Assembly (NCBI GenBank): GCA_041665345.1 | Contig: JBAYJA010000004.1 | Coordinates: 48,122 to 112,121, forward strand | Length of the DNA stretch: 64,000 nt | Origin: Patescibacteria group bacterium | GTDB taxonomy: Bacteria > Patescibacteriota > Patescibacteriia > PEXW01 | Direction of reading: 5' to 3' | Shown: positions 6,656 through 60,561 of the stretch, one piece after another | Position numbering within the stretch: the stretch's first letter is position 1 | Layout of the letters: each line of letters opens with the position of its first letter | The notes under the pieces: model-generated | Seen by the model: the letters and a program-made list of their open reading frames with translations, nothing else | The model's database searches: none | Told to the model about the DNA's origin: nothing | Program-made: the position numbers and the translations under genes

Positions 6656-9600
6656 CTAGAACGTCGTCGTTGCAATGTACGTGACATTTGTACTGTATGC
6701 ACCCGCCGTCGTAGCACTGGAAATGTTACAGATGTAGTAAACACTAGCCGTCTCGATTACCGTAGACCCAGCTTCAGACATCAACGTGGTTGCAGTGCTG
6801 GGAACGAACGAATAATTGTCACTTGCTTTCTGGTACGCAGAGGGAATGGTTGCATTGCCATCTGTGGTTATTGATAAAGCAAATTGTTCACTACTTGGTG
6901 TGCCATCTGCATCTCCTGTAAAGGTTGCGGCAGTAATATCCTCGGGCCCTGACAGGGTAGACCCAAAGTAAGTTAATGCATACCCGCTCCGAGCATTGGT
7001 GGTCACGGCTAATGTATGTGCGGACACGGCACTGGCAGAGCCGGTTGCCGCCCCATTTGCCCAACGGGCTGCTGCAGAGGAAAGTGTCCCAAAGCCCACC
7101 GCGGTATCAGAAATGCTGAAAGTCAAAGTATTAATATTCCAGCATGGGTTGTTGGTCGAATCGTAGTTTGTACCGTCTGTGGCATCAATGTCATCCCCTG
7201 GGCAGGCATTGGAATCACGTACATCCGTATTGGAGACGGTTTGCGTTCCCAGGCTATTGAGGTCCCACAGGGTTCCTGTGGTTGACGAACGCAAGAACAC
7301 GCGTGTGCCAGTTGCTTGGCCGTTGAAGGCAATATTGTTGAATGTATACGTACCGCCGGCCAGGAAGCGCAGCTTCGTATTTGCTGTCTGCGCTGTGAAC
7401 GTTGCTGCAGTTTCTGCCGCAGCCGCAAAAATGACAGAGGGCGAAGTGACCGGATCCGCACCGGAGCTATTGGTAATAGTGAGGTTATTGAACCGATCAC
7501 TTGCACCAGTCAATTGCCCATCAACCGTTTGCTGAGCGGCGCCATCCAGGGTCACTGTCCCGGTGTTGTCCGTGAAATCACCATTGTTCGTCCAGTTCCC
7601 CGCAACCGTGAAACTTGCGGTTGATGATCCATTCAGCAGGCCTTTTGAGGTAATTGTTACTGCACCATTGGCATCAAGAATCCGATCATTGGTTTCATTA
7701 TCTAGCGTCGTCACATTCGAATCACTCGCGTTCCCAATCGTGAGCGTTCCCGAAACAATAACCTGCCCGGTTCCACCCGTAGCAAACGTAACCGTACGGT
7801 CTGTGGCGCCTGAGGTTTCAAAGGAAAGATTATTGAACGTCCAGTTATTTGCATTTGCTGTGCTGCCAAAATTTTTAGCAGCCGCAACCCGATGCAAAAA
7901 TGTGCCACCTGACCGGGTTACGGTTCCACCCCCAGCCAATGTGCCATACATGGTGATATCTGTTGCGCCCAGCAAGCTCCCGGCGGTCACCGTCAGATCA
8001 TTCCCCACAGTCATGGCGGTATTCGTGGTCCACTCCCCACCGCTGCCGTTGAATACGAGGTCGTAAAAGTCGTCAAGATCGCCCATTGTACCACCAATGG
8101 TATTTCCAGTATCGGTCGCGGTAAAGGTGACTGTCGCCGATCGGGCCGTAAAAGAATCGTTATTTGTCCAGTTATTGCCAACCGAGATGCTGTTACTCTC
8201 ACCAGTTTTCGTATCCAGAACCCCGCCGGTGATCGTAATGTTATTCGTAACAACCAGCGGGTCCTCCACTTCAACGGTGAGGGTGTACGTCCCACCACCG
8301 TCATTCACAATGACGTTGTAGGGGTTTCCAGTGCCAACGGTAATAAGGTCTGTGGTGGCATTTGCAACGACCGTACTTGCAAGCGTCATAGTCAACGTGG
8401 ACTGATCAGGCGTGAAGGTTCCACCAGTCTGTAGGTCGAATTTCCCATCCGTATCCATGAACGTTTCATCAGTTTCCACATCATCGGTAGCGTCCAACGT
8501 CCCAACGATGGTTATGCCGCCCGTGCCAATATCCAGGTCGTAACCATTCGTATTGAAGATATCACCCGTCGGGATGGTTACTGACTTTGCAGTAAAGTCA
8601 GAACCCAAGTCCGTCGTACCAGGCGACAACCCAACCTGCACATTGCCCATATCCTGTTTCGGTGAGGTGTTATCCGTGAAGGTCATCGGTGTAGGATTCC
8701 CATCCATGATTAGAATGCCAGAACCTGTAGCTGCAGTGAAAGTCGTTCCCGTTGCAATGGTGAAATTACCGTAAACTGTAAGGTTGGCATTTGCCGCCTG
8801 CGTAAAGCCTCCCCCCGTGATGTCGAACGTCTTATTCACCAACACTGCGTCTGCGGTGGCAACGCTTCCACCAGACACTTCAAACTTCTGCAGTTCGTTT
8901 CCCGCAGCGGTGAGCGTCTTGGACGTGCCGTTCATCTTCAGGGTATTGTCAGTGGACGCCGTGTACGTCCCCCCAGTGAAATCCACGTTCCCACTGACGG
9001 TCCACACCCCCGTGCCCGAGGTAATCACTTCGCTTCCACCTCCAGTACCGGTGAAGTCAACATCCCCACCCACCGTGACCGTCGGGTTATTCGAGGCGCC
9101 AATCAGTGTGGCATCTCCTACACCATCGGTAATCACGTAAAGGTGTGAACTTGCGCCGGAAAGGGTGAACGACCCAGTGGGGAAAGTGAAGGTTTTTGCC
9201 GTGCCACTATTGGTGAACAGCTCTACCCGTCCACCATACGTCCGCGCGTCCAGAGTCGTGGACGCAATGTTCGCTGACGAACCATCGTAACGGACAATAC
9301 TACTGAGGGTTCCGCCCGTCCCTGGACCGGATGAAGCGTCGGTGAACCGCAAGGTTCCATCCCCGCTTATGGTTCCCGTGGTATTAAGCGTCAGCGTTCC
9401 AGGCGCATTCACAATTCGACCGCTACCAATAGATAGAGTGTCGCCATCTGCCACATCGAGCGCGCCAGACACCGTGAGATCCGACGTGCTCACTGTTATT
9501 GTCCCTGTGGAAGCAGGATTAATAGTAAGGTTGTTGAAGGTGGTTGCCGTGGATCCAGTTAAACTGTTCGACGTACCGGTCATGGTTATGGTGGATGTGC

Positions 9601-12600
9601 TCTGCGTAAAGGTACCGTTATTCGTAAGCGTCCCGGCAATGGTGTACACACTGTTCCCACCTGAGGTGAGCGCGCCGCCAATGGTCACATTCTTCGCGGT
9701 TACGGTTTCTGTGCCACCAATCGTCAACGTGGCGCCAGAGAGAATGCTCAGCGTGGCGCTGGTGTACGTTCCACCTGCCTGAGCAGCCAAGGTGGAGGAA
9801 TTTGCCGTGTGTACAATATTTTCATTATCATCAGCATCATACTGGCCCATGTTGGTTACCGTCACCGATGGATTGTCCACGCTCCCAATGGTCAGCACAT
9901 TTGTGTCCAAGACCAGGCCAGTAATGTTCCCCGACCCGTCATAATTCGTAACGGCTGTTGTTTCCGCACTATCGGCAACGCCATCCACAAAAACCGTAAC
10001 CGTATTCCCTGTGGCCACGGTAACGCCAGAAATAGTCCACGTTCCAGCCAAGGTTGTGGTTTGAGCTTGAATGCTCCCATTCACCGCTACTTTCACTGTC
10101 CCGCCTGAACTGTTCGACGTGCCAGCTACGTCTATACCACAGGTTGCGCCAGCACTGACTGTAATATTCGTATTTCCGCTATTCGTAGACTGGGAGAAGG
10201 TGGCACATATTGCTGCGCCAGCATTATTTGCATCGCTAATGTCTACGTAGGAAAGTGACGCTGAAGTTGGGTTGACGTTCCAAGCGTTGCCCACACTGGA
10301 TGATTGCAGGGTGATCAGCTGGCCCAAAGCTCCAGTGACTGTCCACGTACCCGCGATGGTCTGTGTTGTGGCAGCGGTAACGGTAATTACCTTTGCCGCA
10401 CCAATACTGGTGACCGAAAGATTATTGAAGGTTGTACTGCCGGCAATAGTTGAAGCCGCTGTAGTAGTAAGCGCAATGGTGCCGGAATTATGGGTGAACG
10501 TGCCAGCATTAGAGAAGCCGGCTCCAAAATTTGTGGTGGTAGCTGAGCTTGCCTGGAAAACCGTATCCGCCGCAATCGTCACATTACCGGTGACAGTGAA
10601 GGTTGGATCCCAGGTATTCACCTGGAAAATCGTAGTGCTGGAACCGGTGCCAGTGTTCAATAGGTCCAGCGTGGAGGCGATGGTCAGGGTTTGCGAACCC
10701 GCAGTGCCGGCAGTCACCGTGCGCCCCGCCGTCGTGCCACTATTATCAATTTCCACTTTTTGGTAATCCGTGCGGGCACCCATGGATTGATCAGTGGCCG
10801 TGGCGTCCATTCGTAAAATGAGACTTGCGCCCAGTGTCCCGCCGGTTGGGAAAGTTGTAGCACTTCGGTAGGTAAGCCGACCCGGGCCGTTGATAGTGCC
10901 GCTTAAGGTAAGCGTGGCGCCAGTGTGGGTAATAGTGCGGCCGGAACTAATGGTCAAGACGTTACTTGCTCCAGACAATAGTAGAGTATTTGTAACAGCA
11001 ATATCTGATGTTTGTACCGTTACAGCTCCACTGGCGTTTCCAATATCCAGGTCATAAAATGTTGTGCTACTTGAGCCGTCAATTGAGCCTGCGCTCCCTG
11101 TAAGACGTACTCGACTGTCATTATGGGTAAAAGTTCCGTTGTTCGTGAATGTCCCACCAACCGTCAAGTTTGATGTGGATGTAAATGTGCTTGGGGTCAA
11201 TGATCCAGAAATCAACAATGCATTACTTACGGTTAAGTTATTTGCAATACTCATGCTGCCACTCGACGTAAAATTGTAGAGTGTGCTACCTCCAGTATAT
11301 GCGGTTAATGTTTTTGAGGTGCCATCCATGATGACCGTATTCCCAGTTGACGCAACGTAACAATACGTAGCCAGAAAAGAGTTGCATGTTGCATCAAAAT
11401 TTCCTGAGATAGTCCAGATCCCAGAACCCGACGACACTGGTTCCGTGCCGTCGCCAGTACCCAATATATCAAAGTCACCACCAATATTCACCGTGGGATT
11501 ATTGGTTACACCGGTGACAGCCATATCCCCAGTGCCATTAGCATAGACGTAAAAGTGGCTACTGGCGCCAGAAAGTGTATACATTCCAGTGGCAAAAGTC
11601 GTAGTTCGACCCGTTGCGCCACTATTGAAGAACTCAACCGTGTTCCCATACGTCCGCGCGTCAAACGTCGTGCTAGCAATATCTCCACCAGTGGCATCGT
11701 ACCTCGTAATCGCACTTATGATTCCCACCGTACCTGGACCACCACTCGTGTTGGTAAAGGTGATGCGGCCCGGACCGGCAATGGTACTGGAACTTGTAAG
11801 CAATACGTTTGCTCCAGTATGCGTCAATGTTATCCCACTGGCTATGGCCAGCGTGGCGTCCGTGTTGACGAGGAGGGTATTTGTAACCGTCAAATCTCCC
11901 GTCTGCAAGGTCAGGGTACCTGTACTCACTGGGTCATAGCGAAGATTGTAGAGAGTCTGACCATTGCTGGTTATGGTTTTCCCAATACCGGTGGTGAACA
12001 CCGTTCCAGTCCCTGCATCCACGGTTAATCCAGAAGCCATTACAAAATTTCCATCGATATGTGTGGAAGACCCTAGCGTGTAGGTGGGTGTTCCACTTGC
12101 TTGCTGCAAGGTTAGGTTATTGAAGTTGCCTACGTAAATTGTGGTCGCACCAGTACCGCTGTATACAAAAGTTGAAGTGCCAGGAATGAGTACTGTGAAG
12201 CCAGACTCATCCACTATCGGTGTCCCTGAGCCGGACAGGGTCCAGGTTTTTGCCCCAGCATTGAGCGAGTGCATGTTAAAACTCTCCCCGGCGGCAGTTG
12301 CCTCAAGAGTAAGCACATTAGTGACAGTTACCCCGCCATTCCCTGTAGCTGTTGTGGTAAAAATGTTTCCCCCAGATTGCTCCAAAGTGAGGTTATAGAA
12401 TGTCCACCCAGTGGCACCACCAAAGTTCCCTGTCTCACTAAGCGTGAAAGTTGGTGTGCCGCTTGTAGTTGTTACCGTTCCATCACCTGTGACGGCCCCA
12501 CCATTCACGGTCATATCTGCATTTACAGTCAGGGTTGAACTCGTGTCCACGACAACATCCCCAGTGACGGTGAAAGTCCCAACTGCAACCGTGAGTGCCG

Positions 12601-15600
12601 AAGCCACACTCCCATTCCCCACAGTTAGGTTATTGGAAACCGTTGCAGCTTTCTGCAAAGTCGTTGTCGCGGCTGTCCCATCGCCAATCACTAAATTGTA
12701 AATGGTAATTGCTCCGCTGGCGCCATTGGTTCCCAAATTTCCAGTCCCGCGCATGGTTACGGTGGGAGTTCCACTGGATGCGATGATCCCGGTTGTCGTA
12801 TTTGTAAAGTCGCCGCCACCGACGGTCAGGTTTGCGCCAACCGTGAAGGTTGACCCAGTACCCACTGTCACATCACCGCCAGTTACAGTAGTCGCAGCGG
12901 AGCTCAATGCAGTGGTTGCCGTAGTACCATCACCAATCAGGAGATTGTAAAACGTAAGTGTAGGGGTTGTGCCACCACCAATACTCCCACTACCCCGCAT
13001 GGTTGTAGTTGCGGTCCCAGTGGAACGAGTAACAACAGCACTCGTGCCTGCAGTTGTAATATCACCGCCAGCAACAATCGTGTTTGCATCAATATTCAAC
13101 GTTGCCCCGCCATCCACCAAAATATCCCGGCCAATGGTATTCGTGGCGGTGTCGAGAGATGCCGTACCACCGTCATCTATGTGAAAATCTCCGCCTGTAC
13201 TATTGGTGGTCACGGTCCCGCCCGGATCGTACGTGTCACCCGCCCACACATGAAACTCCATGCCAGACTCCACGGTCAAGTTACCAGTAGTAACGCTATA
13301 CCGAACACCAACATTCGCTCCAGTATCAGCTGTCGCTAATTTTGCATTTGTCATGGGCCCTGCGTCTTCGTGACGCACCGAGGTGTGATCTTGATAAATG
13401 TGCAAATCAACAATATCTGACGTCGTGTCAGCAGCCAGGGTCACCGTTGTCCCCTTAATTGCTTCAACGCTATCAATGAAAATTGCAATTGGGTCTGCGG
13501 CGGTGCTTGGGCGAGCAGCTGCGATAGCAAATGAACCATTACTCAAGGTGCAGTCAGCGGTCTGCTCAGACGCACTGCCATTCACGGACGCACGGACGGT
13601 TATGGCATTTGCCGAACAGTCATACGCCGTTGGGGTTTCATTGGTGTAGATTTTCCCATAGATCGAAATGGATGCTGGCACATACTCAACTAAGAGCCAC
13701 AGCGTTGTTACCTGCAATTGTTCGGGAGAGAGGAGGTTGCTTGTATTTAAATTGCGAACACCGATTTGCGCGCTATCCAGGGTCGTCGTTGTCCAGGCGG
13801 TTAACTGCTGCGGCCGGGTATAGGCGGTCATGCCATAAATTCTTGGAATCGCCGAATGGTGCGACATCCATGTCGTTGTCGTGAAATTCTCTTTCGTCCC
13901 TTCAATAACCGCCCCACTCGCACTATCTTTCAATCGAACTGCGGTTGTGAAAGCCGACGTATTCCCGATGTTGGCACGCATACCAGCAGAAACCAGAGAA
14001 ATTGTGTCTGAAGCACCAATGGACTGTGTCGAACTATCAAAAAGATTAACGTCCGTAATAGTGTTCGCTGTGGCTGTGTACAGGTAAGTTGTTGCATCAT
14101 CTGGGTCTGCTTCATCCACATAGGTATAGTCATTCGTAAAACCCGTATTATCCCCGGCGGCATTTGGTTTCAGGTGTGCTATCGACCCTGCGCCAGGGTA
14201 TCCATTTTGCGTTGTACCAGCATTCTGGTTCACCGCCACATCATCGAAGTACCAATCGCCTTGCGTTTGCGCTTCAGAATTTAGGTTGCCACCAAGTGCA
14301 ATTGTTGTTACACCATTAAGAAGGTCTCTGGTTGAGCTGGATCCAAAATTGGTTCCATTTATTCTGCCTTCAACCGTATCAGTTGCACCCGCACCAGACG
14401 AATTTATTTGGAATTCCACCCGGTACCATGTGCTGGTACTCAAGGCGGCTGACGTGCCAATCGGCGTCCCGCCAGAATCTTCATCGTGTAGCTCCAGTGC
14501 GCCAGTGCTGGTCAGCACCAGGAACACTCGGTCTGTAGTCCCGGAATCTCGAAACGACATGATGCGATTACTCGCACTCGGCAAGGTTTCAATCCGGAGA
14601 TACGCCCGGGCATAGTATGGGCCGTCTGCATTCGCTGCCACAAAATCTTGATTCACACCTTCAGCCGAACCCGAACTCATCCCGTTAATGCGCAACGATG
14701 CGCCTCCAGAGCGGTAGTAGGTTGCAGTTGTGTTGATGGTTGGTCCGCCTGCAATCCCCGCCCACTCTTCACCCGCGCTTACCGTTTGCATTTCAAAACC
14801 AGATGACCACAACCGACCACCTTCTGCTGGCTCATACTCCACCAGCAACCACATCGTCGTTACCAGGAGATCGGGAATTGCATCAGTTGCGGTCACGCGT
14901 AATAAACCATCGTCAATGTTCGCAGCGGTCATTACATCGTAATCTGCAGCCGAGGTTTGATCACCGTAGGAAGTTTGCTTGTAGGTTCGTGGAGCCGCGT
15001 TGCCATTGGTGGTATAGGCGGTCGCGCTATCAGAAATACTCGTTGACTGGTCAACTGCATTCCCACTTGGGATTTTTACCTGCAGATTATGGGCACCAGC
15101 TGCTGCACTGAGACGCGTATACCGAATCCCAGCTTGCGTCAAAATTATTCTATCTTTCGCATTCATACCCTGACTTCCTGTACTTTCTAGGGACACCTCA
15201 AGAAAATCCGTCCCGGCGTCACTATCACAGGTCACCGTTGTTGTCGTATCATCTGGTCCACCAGCGCCACGATCATTTACGGCATCCCATGAGCTAGTTG
15301 ACCCACTGCAGGTATTCGAAGAAGCGCCGCTTGGTTGTCCATCTGGCATGAGGTGTACAATTTTTCCCGCCCCTGGCCAGTTTTCCGGTATGCTTGGGGT
15401 GATGCCGGCATCGTCAGAATTAATTGCCAAATCGTCCCAGAATATTGTTGAGGCTCCACCCGTATCAGTTGAAAGCGTACCAATGCGTACAACGTTGGAA
15501 CCATTCGCATGGTTCACCGTGCCTGACGAGAACGTCACGCCATCCACCTTGGCCTCAAGGTAGGTAGTGCCAATCGTTGTGGTGTCACTCCGAAACTCAA

Positions 15601-17620
15601 GCCGATACCAAGTACTAGTGGAGAGAGCTGCAGAAGTCCCGGTCTGCTGCGCGTTGTCTTCATCATTCCACAATTCCAATGTCCCATCACTATTTAACCG
15701 AATACTCGCCTGAACAGAGGGGCCACTGTCGTAAAACTCCATAATATTCACACGCGTTTCTGGCATATTGGTGATATTCACATACGCGCGGAAGTAGTAG
15801 TCATTCGTTGCATTTGCGTTCGAATATTGGAATGTTGCGCCCGAAGTTGCTGCACTCTCATTTGTTTGCAGCGCCGCAACGCCAGAACGAAAGGTGGAGG
15901 TATCAATAGTGGGTGCAGTACCAACTGTCGCTGTAAATTCTTCATTTGCCGTGACGGTTTGCAATTCAAACCCAGAGCTCCACAGACGTGTAATACTTGC
16001 CGAACCCACCGCGTCACTCGCAATCTGCCAGTGGCGTAACTCTTCAAACACTGGCTCGGCACTCCCAGTCTTTATCAAGCGCGCCTTCCCCAGCAAGAAA
16101 AGTTCCGGGCTAATGTCTGGTGGATTCACTCGGTAGGTCAGCGTGTATATCTTCCCGCCCTTCCACTGCACAGGCCAGCGTATGGTCAGCCGATTGTCAG
16201 CAGCAACAGTTTTCCCTTTGCCAGACACCGCAGACACCTCAAAGGAAGTTGGAACCGAGTCTTCAAAAAAACCGGCCACGTCTTTTTGCGGACGTACGGT
16301 GAGAGTAACTGGATAATCTTCAACCGGATAGATGCGGGTAGGCGCATCACGATGCACGTCCAATGTCACCATAGCTCGCACGGCAATTGCATCTTGGATT
16401 GTGTACTCGCCAAACTTGGTCTCCGCTTTGAGATCCAAGGTGTACATCCCTTCATCGCCACCCTCATACACTGCACTGTAGTCAGGCGTATTGGTCACGG
16501 TAATGGGGCCACACTCTGTGGAACGCGTAATTGACCCAGCATCAGTGGTGAAGGTTTGCACTCCCCGACTTGGGTTGGTTATAGTAAGCCATAATTTCGC
16601 ATCGCAAATGGTGTGCCCTTGCGGATCCAGCACACCCATCCCCACGTCAATATTTTCCCCTGGGTGGTAAATGGATTTTGGTGTGTTCAGCACCAGCACT
16701 CCCCAGTAGAAATCTTTCTTCACCGTGGTTTCTTTGTTCCCCTGCACAATGGTAATTTCCGCCGTATACTTTCCAGGCTTGTGCAGCATTTCGTTCCGCA
16801 CTTCAATGCGTTCGTAAGTAGACCGGCCCTCCGTCACCCGCGTCACGTCATACTCTGCCGGGACTTCCGCGCCATCAGGCCCAACCAGCTTCTTGGCTTC
16901 CACGGTTCGCTCAGTTTTGGTGAATGGTAAAAAGGAGAAGCGGGATTGCTTTTCCACTTCCACCTTCAGCACAGGGTCTTCAGAGTTCTTCAGCTGCGTG
17001 TCTTCCACCTGCACCACATCCCCAGAGAGGAACAGCGGTTCTCGCTTTGGCTTGGCCACCTGCTCCACATCCAAACCTATGCCATCCACGTAGACGGTTG
17101 CTGCTGCATCTGGAGACAAGGCAATGTACCGCACCCGAACCTGAAACGTATCAATATTCCCACGGTGTAGCAGCGGAAAAGCGGCTCGCCAGTACCCGCC
17201 ATGCTGCGCGTTACTAACATCTTGGTTCAACCCAAAAGAATCAAGCCGTGTCCAGGTCTTGCCATCCAAACTGGATTCCATCACCACCAAGTCTTCAGAA
17301 TCTTGACCAGCTTTCCCAGCCAAGGAGAGCACAAGCTCTGCTTGGGAAAAAGACGCGTCCGGATGAAAGTCACTTGGTAGGGCAAAATTCTTGCAGACCA
17401 GCTGCGCTGCCCCAGAACCACCACCCGCTTGGGCTGAAGCATCTTGGGGGAATTGCGCTAGCCCAGTATTTCCCAATGCTTGAATTTCCTGCGCCTTGTC
17501 ACTTCGATCCCAGCCTGTGCATGACTGCGGCCGAATATGCAGCGTCTGCGGTTCAGTCTCTGCACGCGACACCAGGGCTACACCAAAGAAGAGCAGACAG
17601 CTCAGGCTCGCCAGTACCAT
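6656..17620 (-). CDS. Giant secreted surface protein (about 3655 aa mature ORF): Thr/Gly-rich beta-helix-like repeats, two tandem ConA/LamG-like lectin modules, C-terminal conserved beta domain
   Basis: Single 11.3 kb ORF. The track start 17932 is a TTG preceded by an implausible basic leader. ATG at 17620 begins MVLASLSCLLFFGVALVSRAETEP, a signal peptide. LamG-like blocks: ...IRLNSDGTLELWNDEDNAQQTGTSAALSTSTWYRLEF and ...LTSTGALELHDEDSGGTPIGTSAALSTSTWYRVEF. Large internal duplications, for example ...RYDGSSANIASTTLDARTYGGRVELF versus ...RYDATGGDIASTTFDARTYGNTVEFF. The C-terminus ends YIATTTF. Confidence 0.7.
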   Translation of the reverse strand: MVLASLSCLLFFGVALVSRAETEPQTLHIRPQSCTGWDRSDKAQEIQALGNTGLAQFPQDASAQAGGGSGAAQLVCKNFALPSDFHPDASFSQAELVLSLAGKAGQDSEDLVVMESSLDGKTWTRLDSFGLNQDVSNAQHGGYWRAAFPLLHRGNIDTFQVRVRYIALSPDAAATVYVDGIGLDVEQVAKPKREPLFLSGDVVQVEDTQLKNSEDPVLKVEVEKQSRFSFLPFTKTERTVEAKKLVGPDGAEVPAEYDVTRVTEGRSTYERIEVRNEMLHKPGKYTAEITIVQGNKETTVKKDFYWGVLVLNTPKSIYHPGENIDVGMGVLDPQGHTICDAKLWLTITNPSRGVQTFTTDAGSITRSTECGPITVTNTPDYSAVYEGGDEGMYTLDLKAETKFGEYTIQDAIAVRAMVTLDVHRDAPTRIYPVEDYPVTLTVRPQKDVAGFFEDSVPTSFEVSAVSGKGKTVAADNRLTIRWPVQWKGGKIYTLTYRVNPPDISPELFLLGKARLIKTGSAEPVFEELRHWQIASDAVGSASITRLWSSGFELQTVTANEEFTATVGTAPTIDTSTFRSGVAALQTNESAATSGATFQYSNANATNDYYFRAYVNITNMPETRVNIMEFYDSGPSVQASIRLNSDGTLELWNDEDNAQQTGTSAALSTSTWYRLEFRSDTTTIGTTYLEAKVDGVTFSSGTVNHANGSNVVRIGTLSTDTGGASTIFWDDLAINSDDAGITPSIPENWPGAGKIVHLMPDGQPSGASSNTCSGSTSSWDAVNDRGAGGPDDTTTTVTCDSDAGTDFLEVSLESTGSQGMNAKDRIILTQAGIRYTRLSAAAGAHNLQVKIPSGNAVDQSTSISDSATAYTTNGNAAPRTYKQTSYGDQTSAADYDVMTAANIDDGLLRVTATDAIPDLLVTTMWLLVEYEPAEGGRLWSSGFEMQTVSAGEEWAGIAGGPTINTTATYYRSGGASLRINGMSSGSAEGVNQDFVAANADGPYYARAYLRIETLPSASNRIMSFRDSGTTDRVFLVLTSTGALELHDEDSGGTPIGTSAALSTSTWYRVEFQINSSGAGATDTVEGRINGTNFGSSSTRDLLNGVTTIALGGNLNSEAQTQGDWYFDDVAVNQNAGTTQNGYPGAGSIAHLKPNAAGDNTGFTNDYTYVDEADPDDATTYLYTATANTITDVNLFDSSTQSIGASDTISLVSAGMRANIGNTSAFTTAVRLKDSASGAVIEGTKENFTTTTWMSHHSAIPRIYGMTAYTRPQQLTAWTTTTLDSAQIGVRNLNTSNLLSPEQLQVTTLWLLVEYVPASISIYGKIYTNETPTAYDCSANAITVRASVNGSASEQTADCTLSNGSFAIAAARPSTAADPIAIFIDSVEAIKGTTVTLAADTTSDIVDLHIYQDHTSVRHEDAGPMTNAKLATADTGANVGVRYSVTTGNLTVESGMEFHVWAGDTYDPGGTVTTNSTGGDFHIDDGGTASLDTATNTIGRDILVDGGATLNIDANTIVAGGDITTAGTSAVVTRSTGTATTTMRGSGSIGGGTTPTLTFYNLLIGDGTTATTALSSAATTVTGGDVTVGTGSTFTVGANLTVGGGDFTNTTTGIIASSGTPTVTMRGTGNLGTNGASGAITIYNLVIGDGTAATTTLQKAATVSNNLTVGNGSVASALTVAVGTFTVTGDVVVDTSSTLTVNADMTVNGGAVTGDGTVTTTSGTPTFTLSETGNFGGATGWTFYNLTLEQSGGNIFTTTATGNGGVTVTNVLTLEATAAGESFNMHSLNAGAKTWTLSGSGTPIVDESGFTVLIPGTSTFVYSGTGATTIYVGNFNNLTLQQASGTPTYTLGSSTHIDGNFVMASGLTVDAGTGTVFTTGIGKTITSNGQTLYNLRYDPVSTGTLTLQTGDLTVTNTLLVNTDATLAIASGITLTHTGANVLLTSSSTIAGPGRITFTNTSGGPGTVGIISAITRYDATGGDIASTTFDARTYGNTVEFFNSGATGRTTTFATGMYTLSGASSHFYVYANGTGDMAVTGVTNNPTVNIGGDFDILGTGDGTEPVSSGSGIWTISGNFDATCNSFLATYCYVASTGNTVIMDGTSKTLTAYTGGSTLYNFTSSGSMSIANNLTVSNALLISGSLTPSTFTSTSNLTVGGTFTNNGTFTHNDSRVRLTGSAGSIDGSSSTTFYDLDIGNASGAVTVQTSDIAVTNTLLLSGASNVLTISSGRTITHTGATLTLSGTINGPGRLTYRSATTFPTGGTLGASLILRMDATATDQSMGARTDYQKVEIDNSGTTAGRTVTAGTAGSQTLTIASTLDLLNTGTGSSTTIFQVNTWDPTFTVTGNVTIAADTVFQASSATTTNFGAGFSNAGTFTHNSGTIALTTTAASTIAGSTTFNNLSVTSIGAAKVITVTAATTQTIAGTWTVTGALGQLITLQSSSVGNAWNVNPTSASLSYVDISDANNAGAAICATFSQSTNSGNTNITVSAGATCGIDVAGTSNSSGGTVKVAVNGSIQAQTTTLAGTWTISGVTVATGNTVTVFVDGVADSAETTAVTNYDGSGNITGLVLDTNVLTIGSVDNPSVTVTNMGQYDADDNENIVHTANSSTLAAQAGGTYTSATLSILSGATLTIGGTETVTAKNVTIGGALTSGGNSVYTIAGTLTNNGTFTQSTSTITMTGTSNSLTGSTATTFNNLTINPASTGTITVSTSDLTVSGALDVADGDTLSIGSGRIVNAPGTLTLNTTGTISGDGTLRFTDASSGPGTGGTLSSIVRYDGSSANIASTTLDARTYGGRVELFTNSGTAKTFTFPTGSFTLSGASSHLYVITDGVGDATLIGASNNPTVTVGGDVDFTGTGGGSEVITSGTGVWTVSGNVDFTGGTYTASTDNTLKMNGTSKTLTAAGNELQKFEVSGGSVATADAVLVNKTFDITGGGFTQAANANLTVYGNFTIATGTTFTAATGSGILIMDGNPTPMTFTDNTSPKQDMGNVQVGLSPGTTDLGSDFTAKSVTIPTGDIFNTNGYDLDIGTGGITIVGTLDATDDVETDETFMDTDGKFDLQTGGTFTPDQSTLTMTLASTVVANATTDLITVGTGNPYNVIVNDGGGTYTLTVEVEDPLVVTNNITITGGVLDTKTGESNSISVGNNWTNNDSFTARSATVTFTATDTGNTIGGTMGDLDDFYDLVFNGSGGEWTTNTAMTVGNDLTVTAGSLLGATDITMYGTLAGGGTVTRSGGTFLHRVAAAKNFGSTANANNWTFNNLSFETSGATDRTVTFATGGTGQVIVSGTLTIGNASDSNVTTLDNETNDRILDANGAVTITSKGLLNGSSTASFTVAGNWTNNGDFTDNTGTVTLDGAAQQTVDGQLTGASDRFNNLTITNSSGADPVTSPSVIFAAAAETAATFTAQTANTKLRFLAGGTYTFNNIAFNGQATGTRVFLRSSTTGTLWDLNSLGTQTVSNTDVRDSNACPGDDIDATDGTNYDSTNNPCWNINTLTFSISDTAVGFGTLSSAAARWANGAATGSASAVSAHTLAVTTNARSGYALTYFGSTLSGPEDITAATFTGDADGTPSSEQFALSITTDGNATIPSAYQKASDNYSFVPSTATTLMSEAGSTVIETASVYYICNISSATTAGAYSTNVTYIATTTF

Positions 17621-17950
17621 TCGAGTTCGGTAGGTCACTTGCACCCGTTGGTGCTGCCGCGTTTGTAACTCATGCCGCATTGCCCGTTGGAAACTGTGCG
17701 TGCGGGCACGGTACACCTTTCGCGCTGACTGGGGAGCTCCGGCAACCGATGACTTTTTTGCAACTACAGTTTTCTGTCGAATCACCCCGCGTTTTGCAAC
17801 AACTCGACGACCTCTGAGTCCAAGTGGACGCGACTTTAGGTACGTCGTTGTGCTTTGCGGTTTGGGCATGGAGGAACGTTTTGTTCGCCGAACGAAGCAC
17901 TTGGCCTTCCGTGTCTTTATACAAGAATCCAATGTATATTATGCCACATT

Positions 17951-39569: not shown

Positions 39570-39768
39570 ACCCTCACCTCGCCAAGCCGAGGCATGCCTG
39601 CCCGCCGTACTCCGAGTGAAACTCGGAGGCAGGTGGGAAAGCCTCGGCTACCCTCCTTGGTTCAAAAAACTTACTCTGATGCATCTACACCGCAGCTTAG
39701 AGAAGCTGCTGCTGGGTTTTTTGGTCTTGGCTTACGGCCTACGGCTTACCGGCTTATGGCTTCCCCCC

Positions 39769-44553: not shown

Positions 44554-44592
44554 ACAATTAGATTACGAAAGGAAATGGAAAAATGGAGAAAA

Positions 44593-51607: not shown

Positions 51608-52444
51608 TTAGCGTTTGGACGAACGGCGTTTGCGAGAAACTTTTTTGGGAGTGACGCGGCGCGCCTTTGTGATACGAGGTTTTCCTTTTGCGAGCTTCCG
51701 CTTTGGAAGAGCTTTCCGTGGCTTGGGTTTCGCAATGACTTTCTTCTTCACAACTTTTCGTTTTACCCGTGCTCCAGTCTTCTTCTTTGGCTTCACTTTC
51801 GTCTTCTGCTTTTTCACTTTCAATCCTAACCGCGCCTTCACGGGAGCAAAAGATTTTCGGTGCTCTGGTGTTGGTCCGTGCAACGTTAATAACTGCTGGT
51901 GCAGTGCTGTGCCGTACCCTTTATGAATGTGAAACTGGAAAAGTGGGTACAACCGGTGCAGTTCTGAACTCATGATCCGATCGCGTACGACCTTCGCCAC
52001 AATCGATGCCGCGCCAATGGTTCGCTCCAAAGCATCGCCATCAATAATGCTCACCACCGGAATGTTGGTGAAAGTAAGTGGGAAGGCATCCACCAGCAAC
52101 GCATCCGGTTTGATGTACAACTTTGCCGTTGCACGTTCCAGTGCTTGGCGGTTGGCTTCGGTTATCCCTTCCTTATCTATGACCGCCGCTGGGACAATGT
52201 GCACCGCCCAGGCAATCGCCTTTTTCGTGATCGCCACAAAAAGCTCCTCACGCTGCTTTGGGGAGAGTAGTTTAGAGTCCGTAACCCCTGCTGGAACATC
52301 ATTCGTATCCAAAATCACGGCAGCTGCCACTAATGGGCCAGCCCAGCTGCCTTTGCCAACTTCATCCACGCCGGCAATGTGCCGGTGACCGGCCTTGCGC
52401 AAGCGGTGTTCGTGCTCATTTGTTGGTTTCTTCCATTTTGCCAT
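51608..52444 (-). CDS. rnhB: Ribonuclease HII with about 70-aa lysine-rich C-terminal tail
   Basis: IAGVDEVGKGSWAGPLVAAAVIL...DSK...ASIVAKV catalytic core. Tail KVKKQKTKVKPKKKTGARVKRKVVKKKVIAKPKPRK.... ATG 52444 chosen; the track start is a 5' extension. Confidence 0.65.
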   Translation of the reverse strand: MAKWKKPTNEHEHRLRKAGHRHIAGVDEVGKGSWAGPLVAAAVILDTNDVPAGVTDSKLLSPKQREELFVAITKKAIAWAVHIVPAAVIDKEGITEANRQALERATAKLYIKPDALLVDAFPLTFTNIPVVSIIDGDALERTIGAASIVAKVVRDRIMSSELHRLYPLFQFHIHKGYGTALHQQLLTLHGPTPEHRKSFAPVKARLGLKVKKQKTKVKPKKKTGARVKRKVVKKKVIAKPKPRKALPKRKLAKGKPRITKARRVTPKKVSRKRRSSKR

Positions 52445-53325
52445 ACGCAGAGTATAGCGCATTCCCCAGCTTTTTTCTCCTTTCCTTATTCTCTGCAATA
52501 ATCCCTTACTTCAAAAAAATAACCAATTAAAAAAGGGCGCGAGCGTCCAAATATCATAGATAATAAGGGGACTGCGCCCTTTAGAATTCTCAAAAGTAGA
52601 TATTTGCCGCTACGTTTACCGTTCCTCCGTAGAGAAGCCGTCAACGTAGCAGCAACTACCATAAACCTTATGAGAATGTATATTCTTCATTCCCACTTTC
52701 TTGAAGAATGTTTTTAACGCCAACCGCTCTTGTGGTTATACTCCCTGCCCGAGAGCTCAGAAGTTAACCTTTTAGTTCCAGTGGCTTTTTATAACCTCCT
52801 GGAGTTTTATTTTACAGACAGGCGTGTGGGACGCCTATGACGAGCAGTAGGACAGGGAGGTCACAACGCGTTTTGGGTGACATTGACTGCCCGACTTCTC
52901 GGTCTTTAGTAGCAAGAGTAGTTTTTTGCGTTGATTTAAAGAGCGTTCTTTATCTAACAGCGGAAGTATAGCACTGTTTTGACGTAATGTCAAATATCTG
53001 GTTTGGCTAAGATTAGCGGAAATTACGAATAGGGTTACGTCCCGCCACTGAGGCGGGATCCCGCCTTCCTCTTCTCAGAAGCAAGAAGTGGCGGGAAATT
53101 ACGAAAAGAATGCTACGAAACTACGAATGTACGAATTGGGAGGGAGAATGCAGTTTTTTCGGAGTGCGGGCAGCTCTCGTAGAGTCTGAGCGACCCCGAG
53201 TCTGCTCGAGGGGGAGTCGAAGACTACCCGCTGCTCGACCGGGGAGGTTTTGGAGGGGGAAAGAATTCGGAGGATTTAGATTTGATTTGCATAAAGCCTT
53301 CCTCATGTAATACAGACGTTGCACT

Positions 53326-53448
53326 GGTAAGGGTTACCTCCCCCAACCCCTCCTTCGAAAGGAGGGGGGTGTTTGTGGTTTATGAAAACCAAGATCTTTA
53401 AACGTTCCTCCCCTTTCGAAGGGGAGGACAGGTGGGGTAACCCTTACC
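53326..53448. repeat. Nested GC-rich palindrome: outer 13-bp inverted repeat enclosing two CCTCC(C)-TTCGAA-GGAGG hairpins
   Basis: ggtaagggttacc (53326-53338) pairs with ggtaacccttacc (53436-53448). Inner hairpins at 53347-53367 and 53407-53427. Confidence 0.4.
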
Positions 53449-53469
53449 GGGAGAGGAATGCAAATAAAC

Positions 53470-54057
53470 CTAGCTATTTTTTACATAGACTATCTCGCTT
53501 CTACTTCCCTCCCACTCCCGATAAGCCTTTTTCACTTTACTTATGACTTGTCGAAGTGGAATCTTGGTGGTATCCAACACAAAGCTGTACTGCTTTCGCA
53601 GAAAGACATTCACCCCGTACAGTCTTTTGTAGCGTCGTGTGTCGGATTTCACCCGTTGTTTATTGATTTTCATGATCTGCGTCAGGGTTGGCAACTCACC
53701 CACTTCATTTTTCCGGTTTTTCTGGTCTGCCAGTACCCGCCGAGCACCTTCCCTGGGTGCAACATCCAAAAAAACGTTGAAAGCTCTGGGGAAAAAGTGA
53801 AAGGCCGTGCGGCTACTCAGCACCAAGTTCGGATATTTCCGCGCTTCCTTCACTAAGGCCTTATCAAATGCCCGGTCACCAGCATCTGGGTGCGCTTCAG
53901 CCCACGCATTGAAGGCATGGAGGGTGAGCCCGCGTTTGGTCGCCTCAGCACGGCGCAGGTGCCCCACGTCTAGTTGCCGGTATTTGAGTTGTTTTGCCAA
54001 GGCACGACTTACACTGGACTTGCCCGAACCAATAGCGCCGCTGATGGTGATAATCAT
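53470..54057 (-). CDS. Cytidylate kinase-like P-loop NMP kinase
   Basis: MIITISGAIGSGKSSVSRALAKQLKYRQLDVGHLRR (P-loop plus the NMP-kinase architecture of archaeal/short bacterial CMP kinases). Confidence 0.55.
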   Translation of the reverse strand: MIITISGAIGSGKSSVSRALAKQLKYRQLDVGHLRRAEATKRGLTLHAFNAWAEAHPDAGDRAFDKALVKEARKYPNLVLSSRTAFHFFPRAFNVFLDVAPREGARRVLADQKNRKNEVGELPTLTQIMKINKQRVKSDTRRYKRLYGVNVFLRKQYSFVLDTTKIPLRQVISKVKKAYREWEGSRSEIVYVKNS

Positions 54058-54160
54058 TTAATTTACGAATTACGAAAAGTGGTACGAATATACGAATGAA
54101 GAAGTACGGAGTAGAGACTTCAGTCTCTTGTACGATCCAGAGGCTGAAGCCTCTAGTCCA

Positions 54161-54649
54161 TCATGCTTGCACCGTGTGCGTGAGGAGGTCTAAAGAATAA
54201 CGTTTACCAGCTTGGTAGTCACGGACCATTTGCTTAATGTCTACGTCACGCAAGGTTGCACCGTCCATGGCTGCAATTTCCTCTGGGGTGAACCAACGTG
54301 TTTCCGTGGAGTCGTCAGCAAGTGCTTGCTGCGTTCCTGTAACTGTCCCGACGAAAATAAGTTTTATTGCATGAGGCATTACCGTTTCATTTTCTCGGAT
54401 ATCATGCCGGACAAGTGAGTATACTCCAAGTATATGCGTGGGTGTAAATGTGAAGCCACTCTCTTCTTGAGCTTCTCTTTGCACAGCATCAACTGGATTT
54501 TCACCTACATCAATCCAACCAGCCGGATGACTCCACTTTCCTGCATCTGGCCCTTTTCTTCCCGCTTCGCGCATGAGTAAGAATTTGCCGTCACGTTCAA
54601 TGATGGCACCAACAACGCCAAAGGTTTGAGTGAAGACACGTTGTGTCAT
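54161..54649 (-). CDS. NUDIX hydrolase
   Basis: Nudix box GWIDVGENPVDAVQREAQEESG. ATG at 54649 chosen over the TTG track start. Confidence 0.6.
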   Translation of the reverse strand: MTQRVFTQTFGVVGAIIERDGKFLLMREAGRKGPDAGKWSHPAGWIDVGENPVDAVQREAQEESGFTFTPTHILGVYSLVRHDIRENETVMPHAIKLIFVGTVTGTQQALADDSTETRWFTPEEIAAMDGATLRDVDIKQMVRDYQAGKRYSLDLLTHTVQA

Positions 54650-55053: not shown

Positions 55054-55164
55054 GGGTGAAGTATAGCAAGGGGTTGGTCAAGAAGTTAGGTTTGGGTAGA
55101 GCGGCGAGTATGGATAAAGGTTGCAGGTGTGGGGAAATGCAGAAGTTTCAATCATTGAGTGGGG

Positions 55165-60250: not shown

Positions 60251-60561
60251 CTTTTCCTCCAGGTTTTAAGTATTTTGAGTTTTTTTCACCTTAGCTCCGG
60301 ACCGATGGAATGTCAAAAGGCTAGGACTTCTTTTGAAGGAGTAGGGACTTTAGCCTCTCGTAAGTATAAGAGACTAAAGTCTCTACTCCGCCAGTAGCGA
60401 TCTATGTTCGGTTTTATGTAACCAAAAGGCGAGGTCAAGGGACCTCACCTACCCACATAAGCAATAACGAAAAGAAATGATTGACAACCGTACCGGCTGT
60501 TGGTAGGGTCAAAAAAAGACAGGATTAAAAAGATATTTACAAACCCCAAGGAGGTACGCAT

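Follow-up and report, generated by a model that had tools for sequence, protein, structure and literature searches.

What fills the ~1 kb between the genes rnhB and cmk in a Patescibacteria group bacterium? The locus lies at positions 52445–53469 of a 64 000-nucleotide stretch of DNA (the window; GenBank assembly GCA_041665345.1, contig JBAYJA010000004.1), and it is examined here together with its flanking genes. The initial annotation, made from the sequence alone, described this gap as lacking a convincing open reading frame (ORF) and rich in inverted repeats, and suggested that it could encode one or more novel non-coding RNAs (ncRNAs) or be a cassette insertion site. The sequence items listed there were all found where they had been placed. 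The gap is best read as a composite, with a probability of about 85%: an RNA gene (52527–52958), an insertion (~53018–53508) and arrays of TTCGTA boxes that probably act as regulatory elements. The sequence from 52300 to 54300 is 100% identical in three public copies (among them a 1.08-Mb ENA contig and assembly GCA_041660445.1), and gene callers place no gene between rnhB and cmk in any of them; the longest ORF of the gap comprises 67 amino acids, in agreement with the original description.

A structured RNA gene downstream of cmk

Homologues of the gap sequence were collected by an exact-motif scan of GTDB genomes and Joint Genome Institute (JGI) metagenomes and by synteny look-ups, with profile searches run in nhmmer, yielding 14 distinct sequences, the window included. 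The hosts are Candidatus Kerfeldbacteria and other Patescibacteria genomes, and one contig carries a Gammaproteobacteria label. This contig (L023, CAZAMC010000003.1, ‘uncultured Gammaproteobacteria bacterium’) holds a Kerfeldbacteria-type RNA that is ~78% identical to that of locus L005, and is probably a mis-binned or mislabelled contig of the candidate phyla radiation (CPR). The single match in the viral-contig scan (L027) was rejected by nhmmer and is due to chance, as are the matches in Roseburia and several others in the genome and metagenome scans.

Relatives in which the cmk-family protein shares only 47–59% identity with that of the window have the gene order cmk, gap, rnhB, methyltransferase, yraN, nusA, hppA, and their gap spans ~525 nt compared with ~1 kb in the window. 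The entire gap of these relatives aligns to the minus strand of window positions 52445–53023, long stretches of it being invariant, whereas positions 53024–53469 have no counterpart in the aligned gaps. The RNA gene lies directly downstream of cmk in all 14 sequences, in a single copy per locus according to nhmmer; a more distant relative of cmk (39% identity) lacks it. The 5′ domain of the RNA is 71–88% identical between genomes at the nucleotide level, compared with 56–64% for cmk and 62–77% for rnhB. The gene and its signals in the window are as follows.

52527–52958, minus strand: structured ncRNA gene of ~430 nt, with 14 homologues, covariation and its own promoter and terminator
52965–52993, minus strand: promoter of the ncRNA, TTGACA-17 nt-TG-extended TATACT (TTGACA-17-TGcTATACT), 11 of 12 consensus positions plus the TG extension
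52533–52582, minus strand: intrinsic terminator of the ncRNA, with outer stem AAAGGGCG/CGCCCTT and inner stem GTCC/GGAC, then a T-run; supported by covariation
53003–53020, no strand assigned: palindrome TTGGCTAA-nn-TTAGCCAA, ~10 nt upstream of the −35 box and invariant in relatives

The case for an RNA rests on the pattern of substitutions. The consensus fold of the 14 sequences contains 122 pairs in 12 helices, and 95.5% of the cells in paired columns are indeed paired, compared with 37–45% in controls with the partners slid by 1–3 columns. Both sides have changed in 50 of the pairs, compared with 8–15 in the slid controls, and none of 500 shuffles equals the observed covariation values. The helices are thus maintained by compensatory substitutions beyond the controls, which is what a generic test for a structured ncRNA looks for; an earlier set of 11 sequences was also scored for RNA structure. 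The window sequence of the RNA taken by itself folds with a z-score of −6.6. The strand is settled by the lower consensus energy on the minus strand (−109.9 kcal/mol, compared with −74.8 on the reverse complement) and by 150 G-U cells in the fold, which would become A-C mismatches if read on the other strand. The alignment with relatives that had been proposed as a check therefore bears out a conserved structure in 52527–52958, and of the earlier suggestion of novel ncRNA(s) what stands is one RNA of ~430 nt, on the minus strand only and confined to this interval. The helices named below, all on the minus strand, come from the consensus fold.

52913–52926/52719–52732, minus strand: H1
52877–52901/52841–52864, minus strand: H2
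52832–52840/52814–52824, minus strand: H3
52793–52802/52778–52786, minus strand: H4
52754–52769/52734–52749, minus strand: H5
52702–52709/52682–52689, minus strand: H6
52667–52677/52586–52596, minus strand: H7
52638–52660/52599–52621, minus strand: H8
52632–52634/52625–52627, minus strand: H9
52826–52831, minus strand: H3 loop UCCCAC, kissing-loop partner, 6 bp with GUGGGA of the H6 loop
52691–52696, minus strand: H6 loop GUGGGA, kissing-loop partner, 6 bp with UCCCAC of the H3 loop

After an unpaired leader of ~40 nt, whose 5′ end is not conserved, H1 closes a five-way junction with H2–H5, in which the A-rich junction nucleotides and an AUAAAA loop are invariant. H7–H9 form a hairpin of ~95 nt with a conserved internal loop, GGUUNAUG facing CUAC. 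A 6-bp kissing helix between the loops of H3 and H6 can form in 14 of the 14 sequences, in four co-varying versions: UCCAUG:CAUGGA (9 sequences), UCCACA:UGUGGA (3), CCAUGA:UCAUGG (2) and UCCCAC:GUGGGA in the window; 6 bp are attained in 0.5% of the trials with shuffled loops.

Several of the inverted repeats noted earlier can now be placed within this fold. The long-range stems aagggcgc/gcgccctt (52533–52582) and gctacgtt/aacgtagc (within 52599–52660) are real and correspond, respectively, to the terminator and to H8 of the minus-strand RNA. The attcttca/tgaagaat hairpin (52682–52709) is equally real; its reading as a terminator, made on the wrong strand, does not hold, the hairpin being H6. 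All three repeats are preserved in relatives by compensatory changes.

The RNA also has the hallmarks of an independent transcription unit, that is, a sigma-70 promoter and an intrinsic terminator that are both conserved in position. Both promoter hexamers and their spacing are invariant across the homologues; both stems of the terminator show compensatory changes, and a T-run follows in every homologue. Judging from these signals, RNA polymerase would start at the extended −10 promoter (52965–52993) and stop at the covarying hairpin and U-run (52533–52582). Within the folded RNA, H6 is locked onto H3 through the 6-bp kissing loop. The palindrome upstream of the −35 box (GGCTAAnCTTAGCC) is invariant across 13 genomes (for example, L005:6569–6586) and occurs once in the window, with no further copies there; in the window, its distal arm is damaged (TTAGCGGA) by the breakpoint of the insertion. 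In the closest relative, L039, the cmk stop codon lies inside this palindrome and the RNA promoter follows immediately. From its sequence, the palindrome may be an operator for a dimeric regulator.

Identity of the RNA

Searches for a known family came out negative. Rfam 15 (4227 covariance models) was run at gathering thresholds and, over ~0.5–2 kb of sequence, at E ≤ 10. At gathering thresholds, the whole window yields a single tRNA (27748), and three loci from relatives yield nothing; at E ≤ 10, the 2-kb and 0.5-kb segments give only microRNA-hairpin and noise matches that fall far below threshold, so that the proposed Rfam scan of the gap assigned no family. The models of RNase P (RF00010, RF00011 and RF00373 included), transfer-messenger RNA (tmRNA), signal recognition particle (SRP) RNA and 6S RNA give no match at E ≤ 10 over the same ~0.5–2 kb. 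ARAGORN detects no tRNA or tmRNA in the gap and no tRNA-like domain in 12 loci from relatives, and literature searches for a CPR ncRNA of comparable kind turned up no description. The RNA is accordingly a candidate for a new class, matching no known family. The earlier statement that the gap lacks the P4 element of RNase P, a tmRNA or tRNA-like end and an SRP signature agrees with Rfam, with ARAGORN and with inspection of the alignment.

The most serious competing identity is an extremely diverged housekeeping RNA (RNase P RNA, tmRNA, SRP RNA or 6S RNA) that the Rfam models miss. The size of the RNA and its strong, constitutive-looking promoter suit such stable RNAs, and CPR genomes do include RNase P RNAs that are detectable only below the Rfam thresholds (Lui et al. 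2021, PMC8172020). Since CPR RNase P RNAs can be this diverged, the defining features of the molecule were checked by eye. H1, a conserved long-range helix that follows ACAAGAG, loosely resembles P4 with its CR-V flank, but CR-I (GNAANNUCNGNG) and CR-V (ACNNAANNNGGNNUA) flanking P4 were not found in the alignment of 14 sequences: GAGAAGU belongs to the hairpin H2, with its UC unconserved, and ACAAGAG-GUGGUAGUC misfits CR-V. The two ends do not pair with each other, as they would in P1/P2, and no P3 precedes P4, the 5′ leader being unpaired and the 3′ end consisting of the terminator hairpin; specificity-domain modules are not apparent on inspection. In size, in the strength of its promoter and in having a multi-branch core closed by a conserved long-range helix, the RNA is similar to RNase P RNA (RF00010/RF00011); it differs in the signature motifs, end pairing and specificity-domain modules just discussed. 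With tmRNA it shares the size class and a pseudoknot-type tertiary pairing, but ARAGORN is negative in the window and in the 12 loci, the 5′ ends are not conserved, and no tRNA-like domain or, by inspection, tag reading frame is present. The domain IV hairpin of SRP RNA, with its GNAR loop and GGAAGCAGC-type motif, is not in the alignment, and the rod shape of 6S RNA is unlike the branched fold seen here; Rfam provides no match to either, even at E ≤ 10. A diverged housekeeping RNA thus appears improbable, and the small share of the probability left to it reflects the fact that the scan for canonical copies covered the 64 kb of the window out of a 1.08-Mb genome.

A second competing possibility is that the element acts in cis, as a riboswitch or attenuator in the leader of the rnhB-methyltransferase-yraN-nusA operon or as the 3′ untranslated region of cmk. 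Both neighbours are on the strand of the RNA, a terminator precedes rnhB, and in relatives cmk and the RNA are not separated by a strong terminator, all of which would fit a cis-acting element. Against this stand the near-consensus promoter of the RNA and the organization of its 3′ half, where two conserved hairpins, H6 and H7–H9, separate the junction domain from the terminator, with no sign of an alternative pairing. The RNA is not a leader of rnhB because rnhB carries its own TATACT, six nucleotides ahead of the ATG, and because in L019 (2770–3390) a convergent gene for a membrane protein of 206 amino acids is placed between the RNA terminator and rnhB, so that the adjacency of the RNA and rnhB is not obligatory. 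A cis-acting element is, all told, quite unlikely. Even less credible is a small protein gene overlooked by annotation, or a pseudogene in decay. The gap does contain several ORFs of 33–67 amino acids, but these are not kept between genomes although the DNA is; the ten longest have no Pfam match at E ≤ 1, and the substitutions track base pairing without codon periodicity.

The identity that appears reasonably probable, instead, is that of a class of large RNA with a tertiary fold that has not been described before and is confined to CPR of the Kerfeldbacteria type, a scaffold for a ribonucleoprotein (RNP) or a ribozyme with a housekeeping role, rather than a diverged known RNA. The closest analogies are OLE, ROOL, GOLLD and raiA, which likewise exceed 400 nt, contain multiple helices, are confined to one lineage, are encoded as stand-alone genes, and have invariant junction nucleotides, a loop-loop contact and an orphan function. 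The RNA described here does not match their Rfam models, its hosts are CPR (Kerfeldbacteria), and it lies outside prophage or tRNA-rich contexts. Four features bear on its mode of action, namely the consensus promoter, the single copy per locus, the invariant unpaired A-rich junctions and the loop-loop tertiary lock. These typify globular RNAs with a catalytic function or with protein or ligand partners, not small RNAs that pair through a seed, and therefore a trans-acting RNP scaffold or ribozyme-like RNA is favoured. The RNA probably acts in trans as a compact tertiary-folded molecule and is most likely an RNP component or a catalytic or ligand-binding RNA; a role as a base-pairing small RNA or a leader is unlikely. 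A search of the window for targets complementary to the A-rich junction recovered only the RNA gene itself.

The insertion and the TTCGTA boxes

The remaining half of the gap, which the relatives lack, and the two flanking genes comprise the following features.

53018–53508, no strand assigned: genome-specific insertion of ~490 bp, in which the final ~12 codons of cmk are replaced as well
53041–53095, no strand assigned: twin hairpin with identical CCCGCC/GGCGGG stems and flanking repeat GGAAATTACGAA at 53018–53029 and 53094–53105
53100–53135, minus strand: set of four TTCGTA boxes, paralogous to the array ahead of cmk, with CTTTTCGTAATT common to both
53326–53448, no strand assigned: 123-nt nested palindrome, an outer stem with three inner hairpins, 22 nt beyond the cmk stop codon
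53470–54057, minus strand: kinase gene of the cmk family, conserved as the neighbour upstream of the RNA gene
54064–54096, minus strand: four-box TTCGTA array that stops 6 nt short of the cmk ATG
51608–52444, minus strand: rnhB, the downstream neighbour, with its own TATACT at 52451–52456, 6 nt before the ATG

The insertion is not found in any relative sequenced across the spacer between cmk and the RNA, including the closest one, L039, in which cmk is 87% identical and the sequence from the promoter-proximal palindrome onward is 97% identical to the window. A BLAST search of 52445–53510 against phage and plasmid collections gives no match. The CCCGCC hairpins are real, and the word GGAAATTACGAA does occur twice. 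Bounded on both sides by a 12-nt direct repeat (TTCGTAATTTCC), the twin-hairpin region exceeds shuffled sequences in folding stability by only a modest margin (z −2.3 on the minus and −1.4 on the plus strand). Its sequence recurs elsewhere in the clade: window positions 53032–53129 match the spacer between nusA and hppA in L008 at 79% identity (E 3e-14), and a shorter twin hairpin, with TTCGTA boxes on either side, precedes hppA in L021 and is missing from this site in its close relative L022. The GC-rich stretch 53150–53262 is no more structured than shuffles (z −1.3, +0.9). The nested palindrome was also upheld, with 49-nt arms that are 76% complementary and z-scores of −5.9 and −6.4 on the two strands; no second copy is found in the window or in any of the fetched loci, and the Rfam microRNA matches to it are hairpin artefacts, far below threshold.

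Because of the homology to L008 and the presence/absence difference between L021 and L022, the insertion appears to have been put together from intergenic modules, which within the clade are either moved or duplicated. It would be a recent event, placed between cmk and the RNA promoter and built from modules that recur in these genomes. A somewhat different history, in which the insertion, or at least the twin-hairpin unit, is not a duplicated regulatory module but a non-autonomous element that targets TTCGTAAT sites, akin to miniature inverted-repeat transposable elements (MITEs) or repetitive extragenic palindromic (REP) sequences, is possible but on the unlikely side. The TTCGTAATTTCC flanks of the twin hairpin, with similar flanks in L021, its presence in L021 and not at the equivalent site in L022, the homologous unit at a different locus in L008, and the other palindromic element families in the window all speak for such an element, whereas the single copy in 64 kb and the lack of a linked transposase speak against it. 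The whole insertion was rejected as a MITE with inverted ends, since the 8-nt terminal inverted repeat AGGGTTAC/GTAACCCT is at chance level for an insertion of such length. The twin hairpin and the nested palindrome resemble REP sequences, the bacterial interspersed mosaic elements (BIMEs) and MITE palindromes in being GC-rich extragenic hairpins at gene ends with presence/absence variation and short flanking direct repeats, and are unlike them in occurring as one copy in 64 kb, with no linked REP-associated tyrosine transposase (RAYT) or other transposase and with unconserved ends.

Other palindromic and mobile sequences are found in the vicinity. A long hairpin follows the NUDIX gene at 54104–54162 (z −5.0), with a paralogue ~6 kb off at 60338–60389 (GGAGTAGGGACTTTAGCCTCT...AGAGACTAAAGTCTCTACTCC) and a counterpart matching at 79% in a relative (L019:6694–6750); hairpins of this type appear to form a small family of intergenic palindromes, possibly REP-like or terminator elements. 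An intergenic GC-rich hairpin with CCTGCCCGCC arms at 39585–39649 is similar to hairpins upstream of hppA in L022. Split fragments of an IS3-like integrase (rve/rve_3) lie between pilin-like genes and nusA at 46.4–47.1 kb (L001 17233–17980), so that the neighbourhood harbours some mobile DNA.

The direct repeats that had been reported on either side of cmk are genuine: 37 nt (53106–53142 and 54075–54111) are 70% identical, owing to the TACGAA boxes, which read TTCGTA on the coding strand. TACGAA occurs 49 times in the window compared with 18.8 expected, a number attained in none of 100 shuffles, and forms only two clusters there, at 53024–53135 (5 copies) and 54064–54096 (4 copies). The copy at 44564, upstream of hppA, was confirmed as well. 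The suggested search for such repeats around other genes found them in a different setting, with arrays preceding hppA start codons in several genomes: between one and four TTCGTA boxes stand ahead of the hppA ATG in the window (44564), L005, L012, L008, L021 and L022. In L022, a homologous four-box array ends 4 nt ahead of the cmk ATG, and L039 has none, as its cmk overlaps the preceding gene.

These placements bear directly on the idea, put forward in the initial annotation, that cmk is a mobile cassette bounded by two TACGAA direct repeats. Arrays are indeed present on both sides of cmk in the window genome and on neither side in the closest relative, L039. However, cmk occupies the same position, followed by the RNA gene, in 14 of 14 sequences; the region upstream of cmk was read in eight of them (the window, L005, L008, L012, L015, L019, L022 and L039), and six of these eight lack the repeats. 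Arrays also stand ahead of hppA, and no integrase or attC-like site is found nearby. The cassette has to be given up as highly improbable; what holds is that the window genome alone has the ~490-bp insertion between cmk and the RNA promoter. Since they immediately precede the start codons of cmk and hppA in several relatives, the TTCGTA boxes are instead most likely promoter-proximal regulatory boxes, most plausibly sites for a regulator or else another promoter-proximal element. They resemble tandem direct-repeat operators or iteron-like arrays in being arranged head-to-tail with a period of 7–8 nt, in pairs ~19–20 nt apart, and in overlapping the promoter/start-codon region. The CtsR heptad repeats are an example of such operators; here, the box sequence differs and no cognate regulator has been identified. 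A role as a −10 or ECF-type (extracytoplasmic function sigma factor) promoter element was rejected, given the variable spacing of 4–12 nt and the lack of a consistent −35 box.

The start sites of the other genes of the window differ from those of cmk and hppA, which have neither an AAGGAGG Shine-Dalgarno sequence nor TATACT-N6-ATG. They fall into two groups, with AAGGAGG 6–9 nt or TATACT 6–7 nt before the ATG (for example, 2118–2130, 55054–55065 and 52445–52456), and this sequence pattern suggests that leaderless mRNAs are frequent in this organism. For rnhB, the TATACT 6 nt ahead of the ATG suggests a leaderless mRNA. Elsewhere in the window, a single ORF of 3758 amino acids (6656–17932, minus strand) probably encodes a giant surface or adhesin-type protein, of a kind often seen in CPR genomes.

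A composite intergenic region

The interpretation of the gap as an RNA gene, an insertion and regulatory boxes has to contend with several points that weigh against it. The ends of the RNA, a start at ~52958 and a 3′ end within the U-run at ~52527–52532, are predicted from the sequence signals. The members of the family are those reached by the exact-motif scan and synteny, and all of them belong to one narrow clade, which means that a small number of shared events accounts for some of the covariation counts. Neither a partner protein nor a target was found for the RNA, and no dedicated partner genes lie nearby. The regulatory role of the TTCGTA boxes is deduced from position only, and their distance from the ATG (4–12 nt) speaks against a fixed −10 element.

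With these points weighed, the composite remains the preferred interpretation. CPR genomes are tiny and have little non-coding DNA, yet this RNA is kept with a promoter of its own and outconserves the neighbouring genes, which makes it likely to be important. With the TTCGTA arrays, this uncultured clade gains its first candidate for a cis-regulatory motif. Discoveries of large structured RNAs are rare, and earlier ones have led to new biochemistry; the candidate described here comes with an alignment, a secondary structure supported by covariation and a co-varying kissing loop.

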